NCBI RefSeq assembly: GCF_000019345.1
Contig: NC_010503.1
Coordinates: 30,001 to 62,000, forward strand
Direction: 5' to 3'
Source: Ureaplasma parvum serovar 3 str. ATCC 27815
GTDB taxonomy: Bacteria; Bacillota_I; Bacilli_A; Mycoplasmatales; Mycoplasmoidaceae
Length of the DNA: 32,000 nucleotides
Shown: positions 6,001-12,000 of the stretch, one piece after another
Position numbering within the stretch: position 1 is the stretch's first letter
How the letters are laid out: each line of letters opens with the position of its first letter
Position numbers: made by a program

Positions 6001-9000
6001 AACTTTATTGCGAGGAGTTTTATTGTTATTTATTTTCTTAGACATTAATAATTTAATTATTCTTCATTTGTTTTATATAATAACTAAATATTTCTTTATC
6101 GCTTATTACTGCATTACAACTATCTAGCGGTCCAAACCCTTTGCGAGCTTTAATTCATGGGTCTTCTTGATGTGTAATACTTTCTAATTGATTAGCACTA
6201 TAATGACCATATTCATCTCAAACTTGATTCAATATATCAATAGTATCTAAATTAAAATATTCTAGTTCATTAAAATCATTTATTTTAGGAATACTATTAT
6301 ATTTATGTTCTTTGAATTCATTATAAAGCATAGGAATAGCTGGTTCATGAACTCAAGCTTTGATTTTTTCATCAAATAATTTATTTTTTAAATCATCAAC
6401 TTTTTCATTCATTAAAGTTAGGTATCATGAATATGCATAATACACTAATTTTTGAACTTTTTTGGGAGTCATTGATTCTTTTGTTAAAAATCAATTAGCA
6501 ACAATTAATGGTGTTATTTCTTTCATTTCATGCACATCTTTCCTTATAAATATTATATTTAAAAAGTTAATAGTTTTACTTTTTTCTATTATTAAATTTT
6601 GATATTATATTGTTTAGTTCATTTTTATTTTCATCTAATTCGATTATTTTTTCTTTTAAAAATAAAAGTGCAAACTTGGAAAACTTATGTGTTTTATTGG
6701 TTTTTGATGTTGTAATTTCTAAATGATATTTTTTCGATTCCTTCATTTTAAAATATCAAATAAGTGCATATAATTTTTGAGGTGTTATATTAAGTTTTTC
6801 GGCTAATTGTTTTTGAATATAGGGATAAGTTTCATCTAAATTTTCTAATGGAACTGGAACTTCTTCTGCCAAATTTATATTTCCAGTAACTTTGATTACT
6901 GGTATTCCTTCATTTTCACTAAAACTACCTTCTTTTATAAATTTTGCTTTTTTTAGTAATTTTGCTATAAGATTTTTTTCTAAAACAACATCAACTCCAT
7001 AAGGAGTGGACAATTTTCCGTTATTATAATCAACTATTCCTAAATTAGTAGCACCATTATTTCTAATAAATTCAAAAACCTTAAATAAGCTATCTCGTTC
7101 TTGCTTCATTCTACAATTAATAATTTGTTCCATTTCTGCATATTTTATTTTTTCAGTTCTCGCTCTATAACGATAAAATATATCACCATTAACAATTTTT
7201 TCTGAACTATTATTCTTTTGTGCTATCACTGGTTTTATATTTGATTCTTCGGTATAAATTCACCCAATAATTTTTTGAACAATGATAACATCCCCATTAG
7301 AATTAATTTCTTTTTCTTTTAAAATAAATGAGCCTAATTCTCAATTTATAGAAGGGGAAAATAGATTATTAATAGAATCTGTCAAATCTTCTTGTTGAAT
7401 ATTTTCAAAATTACTATTTTGTAACCCAATTATGGAACGAGGTGAATCTTTAATACCAAAAATAATATATCCACCACTGTTATTAGAAAATGCTGCCATA
7501 GTTTTAGCATATATTGCAATGTTGCCTTTATTAAATGATTGTTTAAATTCAACTTGAGTATTTTCCCTACTACGCAAATTTCCATTTTCCATACGAGCAG
7601 ATAATATACTCTTTACTCTTTCTTCATGTTTTGATATAAGCATCTTAATTTACTTTAACCTCCATTAAAATTTAAAATAATATGTTATTTTATAATACTT
7701 ATATAATTTTGCATTAAGGTTTTAAAAAAGTATGAATTTATATTGATTATGTTTTTATTTTTTGATAGCCTATAATAAGAGCGCACATTCTTTTGATAAA
7801 ATCTTCATAATTATTTAATATTATAGAATTACCAAATAAATCATCGATTTTGTTTGAATAACTTAGTAAGTCTTCATCATTCATAATTTCTTTATAACAT
7901 CTTATGTAATCTTTTTTATTTTTAATTTCCTCACTAATTTCTTTCAAACTAAGTAAAATGAAGAGCGTTTTATCTGGTGTATGAAAATAAACTTTAGGGT
8001 CATCATCTGATAATTTTAAATATTTTTCCAAATTGTGGTTTGAAATATTATCATATTTTTGTAATACACCATCACTTTTATAGTATGGAACTTTATCAAA
8101 AATTATAAAAATTTGAAAATAAGGAACTGAATTAGATCGTAAATTAGCTGTTTCGCCTAACATATTCTCAAAATAATTATTACTATTTTGAGAATAATTA
8201 CTCATAACAAATTTAATTGCTAGTCCAGCAATTGATTTTCCATTATTTTTAATTGTTATATCAACTTTTTTGTTGTAATATCTACCATCAATACATTCTT
8301 CTTTATCATCTCTATAACCTTGGGATTTAATATTGTATTCTTTGCCTAACAATTCTTCTAAATCTTTTGCTATACTCCCATGTAATGTTTTTAATTTTTT
8401 AGTACTTCTAGACGTTCCAACACTCAAATAATTATCAAAAGATTCCTTTATAATATCTAAATCTAAAAATTTTTTGTTACTCAACATTTTATTAAATTTC
8501 CTCATTTTTTAATTTGTAATCCAAGTATTTTTTTACATCTTTCGATGAAAAAGTATAATAACCACCATTTTTATATTTTCCTAATAAAGAAATATAAAGG
8601 CCAAATTCGTTGTCATTCAATGCTTTCTTAATTTTGGGAAAATGTTTTTTGTCACTTACAACATATAATCCACTATAAACACCGGTTCCAATTGGAGCAT
8701 TAACAATTTTTAAATCTGACGTAGTTTTTATTAAAGAATTTATTGCAATTTTATCCTTATAAGTATCTTTAATTCCTTGACTTCTACCAAATGCATATCA
8801 ACAATTTTTTGAACTAATATCATGATTTTTTTTAGTAAATTATTTTTATTAAATTTTAAATAATTGTACATTTTTAAATCTTTTTTTAACACTAATTCAT
8901 CAATTAAAAAATTTTCTTTATCGTATGGATAAAATATTTTTTTTAGTTCTCCTTTCGAAGCTTTAATGACAGGAATAATGAATTTTGATTCAAAGTCAAA

Positions 9001-12000
9001 ATCATTAATAAATATTTTATCTGACAATGTTGCATAACCATTCTTTACTAATATGTTTGTGGTTTTATTTGAAAGTAAAACTTTTTTTAAAAAAATAAGT
9101 TTTTGTTTAGGTCCAAAATAATAATTATTTTTTATAAAATAATCGTTGTGGGATATTTTTTCAATAAAACAAGGTTTTAATTTTTTCTCATCAAATTCAT
9201 AATATTCAACACATTCATTTTTTTTACTCTTATTTAAACAAATAATAGTTGTATAAACAGTAGCATTAAAAGCTTGAAAATGTTTTAAATCACAAACACT
9301 TTCGATTAATTTATATTCACTCAAAAACAAGCGCATATTTAATCCTGCTAAACTTGTAAAAAAAGAAGATGGTGTGATGTAGCATAAAATTCCATTTTTA
9401 TTTAACATTTTTATACCAATTTCATAAAATATAATATACAAATCAGTCATTCCTTTATTACTAAATAAATAATTTTTAATTAAATTGGGTTCTTTAATCA
9501 AATTATGAATTCTAACATATGGAGGATTTCCAATAACAAAATCCATTTTAGAATCATATATATTTATTTTCATACTATCATCATTTACAAAGTTTCATAA
9601 AACTTTATTTAAACCATACTTTTTAACAATATCATCACACCTATGTCTACAAATTTCTAATTCATCATTATCAATTTCTATACCATGTATAAATGTTTCT
9701 AATTGTTTTTTTTAACTCAATTAAATCATTATTATTTATAAGATAATCTTTGCAATATCTATCAACTATATAAGTTAAAAATTGCCCATCTCCACAACTA
9801 TTATCAATTACATGTTTTTTATTTATATTTCCATTAATATAATGCCCTTTATCAAGTATTATATTTACTAAATAATCAGGTGTATAAACTTTTCCATAGC
9901 GTTTAACCTTAGTCAATCTCAATAATTCTTTCATTTTTAAATTTAAAAACCTCTTTTAGACATTATATTAAAATTAATAAAAACGTTTTTATTTTATTGA
10001 TAAGAGTTATCGATACCATAAAATAATTTCAACAATTTAATTAATATAGTTAAATATTTCATTATTTTTTATATTTGATGAAATGACAATATAAGGGTTT
10101 TGCTTTTTTATTATATATTTACTAAATTAATCACTTTTCTCTTTTAATATCAAATAAATATACTAATATAATTAATTTTATCAAAATCCAAAATGGGAGT
10201 CAAAATGGGGTTAAAATTAAACAATTGCTTTTAAAACAATTATTACTAAAAAACTAATAGTTTAAACTTTATTAATCACAATAATTTAGTATTTATCCAA
10301 AATTTTAATAACAATATTAGTAGTATAATGACTTGTAAATAATACAAGGAGATTTTGGTGTTGAATTTAAAACAATATTTAGGTGAAACTAATTTTTATG
10401 ATAAGAAAGAAAAATTAGAAAAGAAAAAAATAAAATCATGACTAAAAAGTGTTTGTACATTTGCTAATGGTCAAGGTGGCAAATTAATATTTGGTGTAAA
10501 TGAAAACAATAATGTTTTAGGATTAGAAAATTATTTAAATGATTCTGAATTTATTAGTGAAACTATTAAAACAAAAATTGATAATATTCCAGAATTTGAT
10601 ATTGAAATTAATGAATACGAAAATAAAATTATTCTAATACTAACAATTTTTCCAGGAAGAAATCCACCATATTTTCTAGTTGATAATGGTTCAAAAACTC
10701 CATATAAAAGAGTTGGTAATCAAAGTGTAATTGCTTCAATTAATGATTTATTAAATTGATGTTTAAGAAGTCAAAATCGCACCTATGATTCATTAGTTTC
10801 TAATAAATTACTAAAAGATGTTAGTTTTTTAATGTTAAAAAATGAATATCAAAAACATACAGAAAATTTATGAGAGGATAAATTTTTAAAATCCTTTGAA
10901 TTAATTGATAACAATAATTACTTAACAAATGCTGGAGCTTTATTTGCTGATGGATATCAAGTTTATCAATCAGGAGTTTTTTGTACTCGTTGAAATGGAA
11001 AGACTAAAACAAATGGTTTAATTGAAGCATTAGATGATGCAGAATTTGAAGGGAATTTACTATTTCTTTTAAATTCAAGTATAAACTTTATTAAAAGAAA
11101 TAGTAAAAACATGTGAAGAAAAGGAGTTTTATATCGTATTCAATATCCTGAATATCCTATAAAAGCAGTGCAAGAAGTAATAGTTAATGCTTTGATTCAT
11201 CGAGATTATTCAATTATTGGTAGTGAAGTACATATTGACATGTATGATGATAGATTAGAAGTATATTCTCCTGGTGGTATGTTTGATGGGAATTTTGTCC
11301 AAAATATCGACCTTTATAATGTATGATCAATTCGCCGTAATCCTATTTTAGCTGATTTATTTGCACGAATGAATTTAATGGAAAGAAGAGGTTCTGGTTT
11401 AAAAAATATTTTAGAAATTTATGCATCTAAAGAAAATTATCGAGAAGATTTAAAACCGGAGTTTCGTTCAACTGAATCTGCTTTCTTTGTTGTTTTAAAA
11501 AATTTAAATTATCAAGAGCAAAATATATCAAAAAATGAAAATCAAAAAATATCCCCTAGCCAAAGACGTAAAAAAATCATAGAATTTATCGGACAAAATC
11601 CAAAAACAACAGCTTATGAATTAACAAAAATATTTTTTGTTTCAATTAATACCATTGAACGCGATCTAGCTAAATTAGTACATGATGGATATGTTGAATT
11701 TGTGGGATCATCAAAAAATGGTGAATGAAAAATTAAAACTAATCAATAAATCACGTTGTTAAAAAATTTTCTCTTCTTTAATCTTGTTATAATTCTTAGT
11801 TAGTAATAGTTTAGGTGGTTAAACGTGAAAAAATATGATGTAATTGTCATTGGTGCTGGACACGCAGGATTAGAAGCAGCTTTTGCAACTTCTAATCTTA
11901 ATTTACAAACAGCATTAATTACATTGGATGAAAAAGGGATTGGGATGATGCCATGCAATCCTTCAATAGGAGGGCCGGCTAAAGGAATTGTTACACGTGA

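Follow-up and report, generated by a model that had tools for sequence, protein, structure and literature searches.

A broken methyltransferase gene beside an open endonuclease gene in Ureaplasma parvum: a probable lineage-fixed remnant of a Type II restriction-modification operon

How can a bacterial lineage carry an open restriction endonuclease gene beside a methyltransferase (MTase) gene that is broken twice? The question is raised by a locus of Ureaplasma parvum serovar 3 str. ATCC 27815 on the minus strand of the window, by which we mean the whole stretch of 32,000 nucleotides analysed (contig NC_010503.1, positions 30,001 to 62,000; G+C 25.6 %); the window was translated with code 4 and all positions below are window positions. 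The original prediction took the MTase gene to be broken and the endonuclease gene to be intact, noted that an active endonuclease should be lethal without the MTase, and offered four explanations, namely two-switch phase variation, rescue by slippage on poly(A), a dead restriction-modification (R-M) system with the endonuclease silenced through loss of translational coupling, and homopolymer sequencing errors that cancel out. We consider it likely that the locus is a lineage-fixed remnant of a Type II R-M operon, MTase followed by endonuclease, which is dead in the lineage of the window. As such it is an ordinary instance of a known process, and neither a demonstrated switch, a slippage-rescued gene nor an artefact.

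The MTase pseudogene (8492-9934) spans 1443 nt and encodes a Type II gamma-class (Eco57I-type) N6-adenine DNA methyltransferase in three frame segments. The first is read in the ATG frame from 9934 to a TAA at 9670-9668 and forms an N-terminal fragment open reading frame (ORF) of 88 aa (9668-9934), a product called on 11 contigs, which carries the S-adenosylmethionine-binding motif I (VIDNSCGDGQFL, 9811-9776). At poly(A) tract 1 (9706-9713), A8 here and A7 in the intact allele, a +1 frameshift leads into the middle segment (8834-9705), which reads ETFIHGIEID ... FVIGNPPYVRIHNL ... and holds motif IV (GNPPY, with NPPY at 9528-9517) together with the greater part of the target-recognition region; the largest of its ORFs to open with an ATG has 277 aa (9573-8740). 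At poly(A) tract 2 (8826-8833), A8 here and A9 in the intact allele, a -1 frameshift restores the first frame for the C-terminal segment (8492-8825; NHDISSKNCWYAFGRSQGI...KNEEI), which includes the CWYAFGRSQGI... C-terminus, ends at a TAA at 8494-8492 and is without a start codon in the window allele. The reading of TGA as tryptophan was upheld, as both in-gene TGA codons align with a tryptophan that is invariant in homologues (W113 and W379). Translation with code 4 thus bore out the predicted break at two A8 tracts by shifts of opposite sign, with a total length of 481 codons.

Conceptual repair of the gene, with A7 at tract 1 and A9 at tract 2, gave a protein matching the Pfam family Eco57I (6.8e-24) and, over its full length, the PADLOC Type II MTase model PDLC03315 (MTase_II; 2.3e-132). 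The repair lengths had been anticipated exactly, A7 at tract 1 and A9 at tract 2 being those of the intact U. parvum allele (loci L001, L010 and L011). The intact MTase (P0001, WP_234552844.1; 480 aa, annotated as U. parvum, on CP086127.1) is a single residue apart from the repaired window protein, with a cysteine in the window and a tyrosine in P0001 owing to a single-nucleotide polymorphism (SNP) at 9170. More than 100 homologues, at 53-63 % identity, are colinear across both frameshift junctions. Because of the match to P0001 and this colinearity, the A7/A9 form is, judged by sequence, the ancestral functional gene. Motifs I and IV lie on a single polypeptide in P0001 and in different frames in the window, so that they cannot form one polypeptide there. 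The closest PDB relative of the MTase, M.BseCI, aligns with the catalytic half only, and the recognition sequence is therefore not inferable from it. A promoter and terminator scan was uninformative at 25 % GC (34 sites against 29 expected).

For comparison between strains, the locus was taken from independent public assemblies and all homopolymer tracts and lesions were typed, with tract lengths read at the assembly level. Haplotype A combines A8/A8 with a TTTAGA duplication in the endonuclease gene, and is carried by the window, ERZ27231024, ERR13393061, SRR9433266, SRR9433267, ERR13600030, SRR17635676 and SRR18964783 and, with extra lesions, by GCA_037407185.1, SRR23994389, ERR13599965, ERR13599985 and GCA_037405195.1. 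Haplotype B combines A7/A9 with a single TTTAGA, the intact 480 aa MTase and a 244 aa endonuclease, and is carried by CP086127.1 and SRR24889934 and, for the parts covered, by SRR14692604, ERR13392829 and ERR11319275. A8/A8 recurs unchanged in at least 12 assemblies that are independent and come from different projects, and A9 is present in at least five samples. About 15 SNPs over 7.4 kb separate the haplotypes. In every sample covering them, the tract state goes together with the 6-bp indel and with the SNPs at 9170 and 8482; the linkage extends to the SNP at 10016, the sole exception being the decayed allele L041, where this base is G.

The assemblies of haplotype A differ among themselves by about 11 SNP events over 8.7 kb, yet the length of both tracts is constant. 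An internal control was provided by a longer homopolymer at a distance of 5 kb, the T run at 15227-15244. Its length is T18 in the window, whereas four assemblies, of which at least three are haplotype A at the R-M locus, have T16 and one other has T17. Since this tract varies among the same strains, the assemblies are able to register tract variation. Linkage of A8/A8 to the SNPs and the indel, together with its recurrence in independent assemblies, rules out sequencing error; the frameshifts are genuine, are passed on by descent and have become fixed in a common lineage of U. parvum. Scans of the Joint Genome Institute (JGI) metagenomes with variable-length patterns across each tract found nothing. 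Logan contig break points were considered as a sign of within-sample tract heterogeneity and rejected, as the breaks do not coincide with the tracts.

The putative cognate restriction endonuclease (7747-8487, minus strand) belongs to an uncharacterised family, and its ORF of 246 aa is open and bears a lineage-specific insertion. The start is most likely the ATG at 8487, 4 nt past the MTase stop, and the homologues all start at the equivalent methionine. It had been described as an uninterrupted ORF of 252 aa overlapping the MTase gene; the open frame stands, whereas the ORF from 8505 that gives this length and overlap is simply the maximal one, and the protein from 8487 carries two inserted residues. 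In all 13 genomes of other species in which the arrangement could be tested (representative genomes of Clostridia, Saccharibacteria and Mycoplasmopsis primatum), an endonuclease homologue lies directly downstream of the MTase gene, and the homologue lists of the two proteins appear to share contigs. The adjacent, co-oriented arrangement is that of orthodox Type II R-M systems.

The family comprises about 2,456 homologues at up to 70 % identity, with a mean column identity of 69 %, and its invariant residues include D76, K92, E107 and E112 and the block Q100-113 (homologues P0122-P0240). No match was found in Pfam, NCBIfam or PADLOC, nor in PDB with either a single-sequence search or a 120-sequence profile. 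Foldseek searches with an AlphaFold2 model (pLDDT 77.9, pTM 0.81) returned weak matches only, none with E below 1e-3 and with TM of at most 0.4, which were enriched in PD-(D/E)XK restriction enzymes: the BspD6I small subunit (probability 0.95), BstEII (0.91), EcoT38I, PfoI and PspGI. On account of the MTase adjacency in other taxa and these fold matches, the assignment as cognate endonuclease is well supported by context and made plausible by the predicted fold. Both U. parvum endonuclease alleles were also seen to deviate at several positions conserved in at least 90 % of the family, for example R96S and Y197C.

A scan of GTDB genomes returned only Clostridia and Saccharibacteria metagenome-assembled genomes (MAGs) and Mycoplasmopsis primatum, and no Ureaplasma locus. 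As no Ureaplasma relative was found outside U. parvum and the nearest relatives are gut MAGs, this suggests that the operon may have been horizontally acquired.

The lesion that distinguishes the endonuclease of haplotype A is a tandem TTTAGA duplication (TTTAGATTTAGA, 8462-8473, minus strand), present as one copy in the intact-MTase haplotype, which inserts Leu-Asp after residue 8-9. The insertion is flanked by the conserved F7 on one side and by the invariant S16-F17 on the other. Its columns are occupied by the window allele alone among 120 aligned family members and are absent from 118 homologues of other organisms, and the F-x6-SF spacing is identical in 117 of the 120. In the AlphaFold2 model the site falls, in a region of low confidence, at an interruption of the N-terminal helix.

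The sequence of events that we propose would start from an ancestral A7/A9 allele, surviving in some strains, with a 480 aa MTase and a 244 aa endonuclease. The 6-bp duplication would then have placed Leu-Asp in the strictly length-conserved N-terminal helix of the endonuclease, most likely abolishing or crippling its activity. With the lethal endonuclease gone, the MTase gene would have been free to decay, and two replication-slippage indels at its poly(A) runs would have changed A7 to A8 and A9 to A8. The endonuclease was thus probably disabled before the MTase.

Further lesions show this decay to be continuing in sub-lineages. The allele of GCA_037407185.1 (L004, haplotype A) has A9 at a third A8 tract (9218-9225, minus strand), which is in frame in the window, and that of GCA_037405195.1 (L042, haplotype A) has T8 at a run that is T7 on the gene strand and in frame in the window (9358-9364); each adds a frameshift. 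Four haplotype A loci (L019, L020, L026 and L042) share an endonuclease nonsense mutation, GAA to TAA at 7806 (E228*), by which the last 19 residues are lost. On a haplotype B background, L041 (ERR13391712) has A7/A10 and a 20-bp deletion equivalent to 8504-8485, which takes out the GAGG motif, the MTase stop and the endonuclease ATG and is, with A10 at tract 2, an independent path to losing both genes.

Over the sampled alleles, five lesion events were counted in the MTase gene and three in the endonuclease gene. All MTase-defective alleles bear an endonuclease lesion and all MTase-intact alleles have a homologue-like endonuclease, and for this reason the premise of an intact and active endonuclease is doubtful. 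The endonuclease is dispensable, as its three independent lesions, among them a start deletion and a nonsense codon, show, and the MTase ORF is not being maintained by selection, as sub-lineages add further frameshifts. The MTase gene has the properties of a pseudogene: its ORF is broken relative to an intact orthologue of the same species, the break is inherited, and independent secondary lesions have arisen in sub-lineages.

The homopolymer content of the two genes differs markedly. All nine A/T runs of at least 7 nt in 7701-10000 lie in the MTase gene, four of them A8, and none in the endonuclease gene, which is therefore a much smaller frameshift target. Because the MTase gene holds all nine long runs, it would be expected to be shattered once selection was relaxed, with the endonuclease ORF remaining open. 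U. parvum, with its reduced genome, is not known to have mismatch repair. The opposite signs of the two indels amount to a coincidence of roughly 50 %, and they restore no function, as the first shift reaches a stop after 14 codons. Reassembly of the three MTase fragments into an active enzyme was considered and rejected, since the C-terminal 114 residues lack a start codon.

A biochemical observation also bears on the endonuclease. A contig with the window-type MTase fragments is presumably the genome of ATCC 700970. Plasmid DNA, which was pT7Blue in the case of ATCC 700970, was left uncut by lysates of this strain and of SV3F4 (Wu et al. 2018, PMC6191088), and the result for ATCC 700970 fits an inactive endonuclease.

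Several points weigh against a dead remnant with the proposed history. The inactivation of the endonuclease by Leu-Asp, which would have permitted the loss of the MTase, is something that we infer from conservation. No intermediate allele (the duplication with A7/A9, or A8/A9) was present among the typed assemblies, which makes the proposed order of events a tentative one. The endonuclease ORF is open in nine of the 13 A8/A8 samples. The lysates that failed to cut were assayed with a single plasmid in a single buffer, and the authors caution on buffer dependence (PMC6191088). The MTase gene also contains four of the 15 A8/T8 tracts of the window in 4.5 % of its length, an approximately six-fold enrichment of the type seen in contingency loci, though a lysine-rich, AT-rich gene would give the same.

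The open endonuclease frame is the starting point for the alternative that a solitary endonuclease is functional and tolerated, either because it needs the MTase for target recognition, as a Type III Res needs Mod, or because another MTase covers its sites. The family is unusually well conserved (60-70 % identity across phyla), always adjoins an MTase gene and has no recognisable independent DNA-binding domain, and neutral decay of both genes would likewise account for a ratio of three endonuclease to five MTase lesions. Against this, the MTase matches a Type II model over its full length and has a recognition region of its own, the two genes are laid out in the orthodox Type II manner, the endonuclease has been lesioned three times independently, start deletion and nonsense codon included, and the lysate of ATCC 700970 was without nuclease activity (PMC6191088). 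We regard a tolerated active endonuclease as unlikely. The two-switch system or phasevarion of the original prediction, in which A8/A8 would be OFF and replication slippage would bring back A7/A9, has in its favour that simple repeats do set the frame and that their lengths differ among strains (A7/A8 at tract 1, A8/A9/A10 at tract 2, A8/A9 at the third), as well as the enrichment of A8 tracts in the gene. Mollicutes use coding tracts of A7-A9 as switches, for example in M. fermentans P78 and M. hominis Vaa, and are not known to have mismatch repair. MTase switching driven by simple sequence repeats is known in mycoplasmas (PMC9465063). However, neither tract varies within a clade that is diverse in SNPs and represented by at least 12 samples, and the state of both follows the SNPs and the 6-bp indel without deviation, although the nearby T16-18 tract does vary among the same strains. 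Tract state is thus coupled to strain phylogeny and, by this assembly-level proxy, fast switching is not seen. The ON state would take two independent indels of defined sign in place of a single step, and extra frameshifts and endonuclease lesions accumulate, so that phase variation is disfavoured and its probability is small. A similarly small chance is given to a variant with Type III-like logic in a Type II-looking pair, in which the conserved small nuclease would be harmless without the MTase and A8/A8 would be the double-locked, revertible OFF state of a slow population-level switch. If the nuclease is indeed harmless alone, A-tract frameshifts in the MTase would shut down both restriction and methylation at once without harm to the cell.

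Rescue by transcriptional or translational slippage on both A8 runs, giving a trickle of full MTase that shields the genome from an active endonuclease, is less probable still. In its favour are the reduced, AT-rich genome, the opposite signs of the two shifts, by which an mRNA slipped at both tracts would regain the frame of the full protein, and the exponential increase of transcription insertions with the length of an A/T run (PMC5574713). The tracts are, however, just 8 nt long, and the same mRNA would have to carry a deletion (-1) at tract 1 and an insertion (+1) at tract 2. At A/T runs, transcription produces insertions and rarely deletions, at rates that climb with run length, and no frame restoration was seen in Buchnera (Traverse and Ochman 2017, PMC5574713), which makes a double rescue at two A8 runs improbable. 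The third or fourth frameshift tolerated in sub-lineages also differs from what purifying selection on a rescued gene would leave, and slippage rescue is very unlikely. Homopolymers are error-prone on some platforms, and errors that cancel by chance were the last of the four explanations proposed; the identical A8/A8 of independent assemblies, while others assemble A7/A9, refutes this explanation and leaves it with practically no chance of being correct. Of the four original explanations, a dead R-M system is the best supported, with the difference that the data point to lesions of the endonuclease itself and not to silencing by lost translational coupling.

A decaying R-M remnant has counterparts among known systems. 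In Mycoplasma agalactiae, R-M genes erode or phase-vary by indels in hsdR poly(A), CpG MTase poly(G) and Type III mod poly(GA) (Dordet-Frisoni et al. 2022, PMC9465063). The host class, slippage at simple repeats within R-M coding sequence and the presence of intact and truncated alleles between strains are common to both cases. In M. agalactiae, however, one tract toggles each gene and length heterogeneity was measured within cultures, whereas the U. parvum locus has two tracts, which are fixed in a clade, and a lesion in the endonuclease as well. Most R-M systems of Ureaplasma are incomplete (Paralanov et al. 2012, PMC3511179), and the locus is a concrete example from the same genus; no account of it, of the intact allele or of the allelic series was found in that paper or in the other literature cited here. 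UpaP162 of U. parvum OMC-P162 is an active Type II system that recognises CATG, is absent from ATCC 700970 and has an MTase predicted to be of the m5C type (PMC6191088). It shares with the present system the species, the two-gene Type II operon and an endonuclease without a recognisable domain, and differs in locus, in proteins and in being active, the present system being dead in the lineage of the window.

Phasevarions, which in Haemophilus, Neisseria and Helicobacter are built on phase-variable Type III mod and Type I genes, likewise have a simple repeat in the MTase ORF that sets the frame. They rely on one long tract and high-frequency switching, neither of which is seen in the U. parvum locus by the assembly-level proxy, and their nuclease depends on Mod, a dependence that for the U. 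parvum pair is hypothetical. Endosymbiont genes frameshifted at poly(A) are reportedly rescued by transcriptional slippage, an observation said to go back to Tamas and colleagues in 2008. The likeness lies in an AT-rich reduced genome and a frameshift at a poly(A) run; the endosymbiont tracts are longer, with one shift per gene in genes that are conserved, whereas here two A8 tracts are shifted in a gene that is decaying.

The surroundings of the locus contain further variable and defence-related genes. Two AlbA_2/Schlafen-type genes flank the R-M remnant, at 10355-11749 on the plus strand and at 6576-7643 on the minus strand, one of which has an HATPase_c_4 domain and weak PADLOC matches to Argonaute-associated and candidate defence models. 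The gene of 464 aa is split in ERZ27231024 and SRR18964783, coinciding with a SNP at 11115, and that of 355 aa has a 63-bp in-frame deletion in ERR13393061. A SocA/Panacea-domain antitoxin-like gene (160 aa, 6053-6535, minus strand) is followed by an ORF of 175 aa without a family match (5518-6045, minus strand), and the two may form a toxin-antitoxin pair. As called, the Panacea protein is shorter in the intact-MTase haplotype (123 aa vs 157 aa).

The T18 homopolymer at 15227-15244 is intergenic, lying directly upstream of a TATAAT box; a DUF31-peptidase lipoprotein gene begins about 95 nt further on, at 15340 on the plus strand. Two contigs break inside the tract. It is a candidate promoter-spacer tract for phase variation, and long homopolymers are also error-prone to assemble. 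The lipoprotein gene opens a tandem array of alternating paralogues (15340-27792, plus strand; also at 2024-4267), in which DUF31 (Mycoplasma peptidase) lipoproteins of 838, 834 and 867 aa, the 838 aa protein being the one assigned on a Pfam basis, alternate with proteins of about 780-790 aa. The first 50 residues of the array proteins at 17879 and 22799 are identical. The layout presumably resembles that of the MIB-MIP immunoglobulin-binding and protease cassettes.

For general biology the finding is of little consequence. It documents the decay of an R-M system by homopolymer slippage in a reduced genome. For U. parvum, it means that strains differ in the intactness of an R-M system, which may affect their transformability and the horizontal transfer that they accept. 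The alleles form a natural series that begins with two intact genes, passes through an altered endonuclease beside a broken MTase and ends with both genes broken, and this series is a ready test of the rule that an MTase is lost only after its endonuclease has been disabled. The endonuclease also draws attention to a family that has about 2,400 members among gut and oral bacteria and is without a Pfam, PADLOC or PDB relative.

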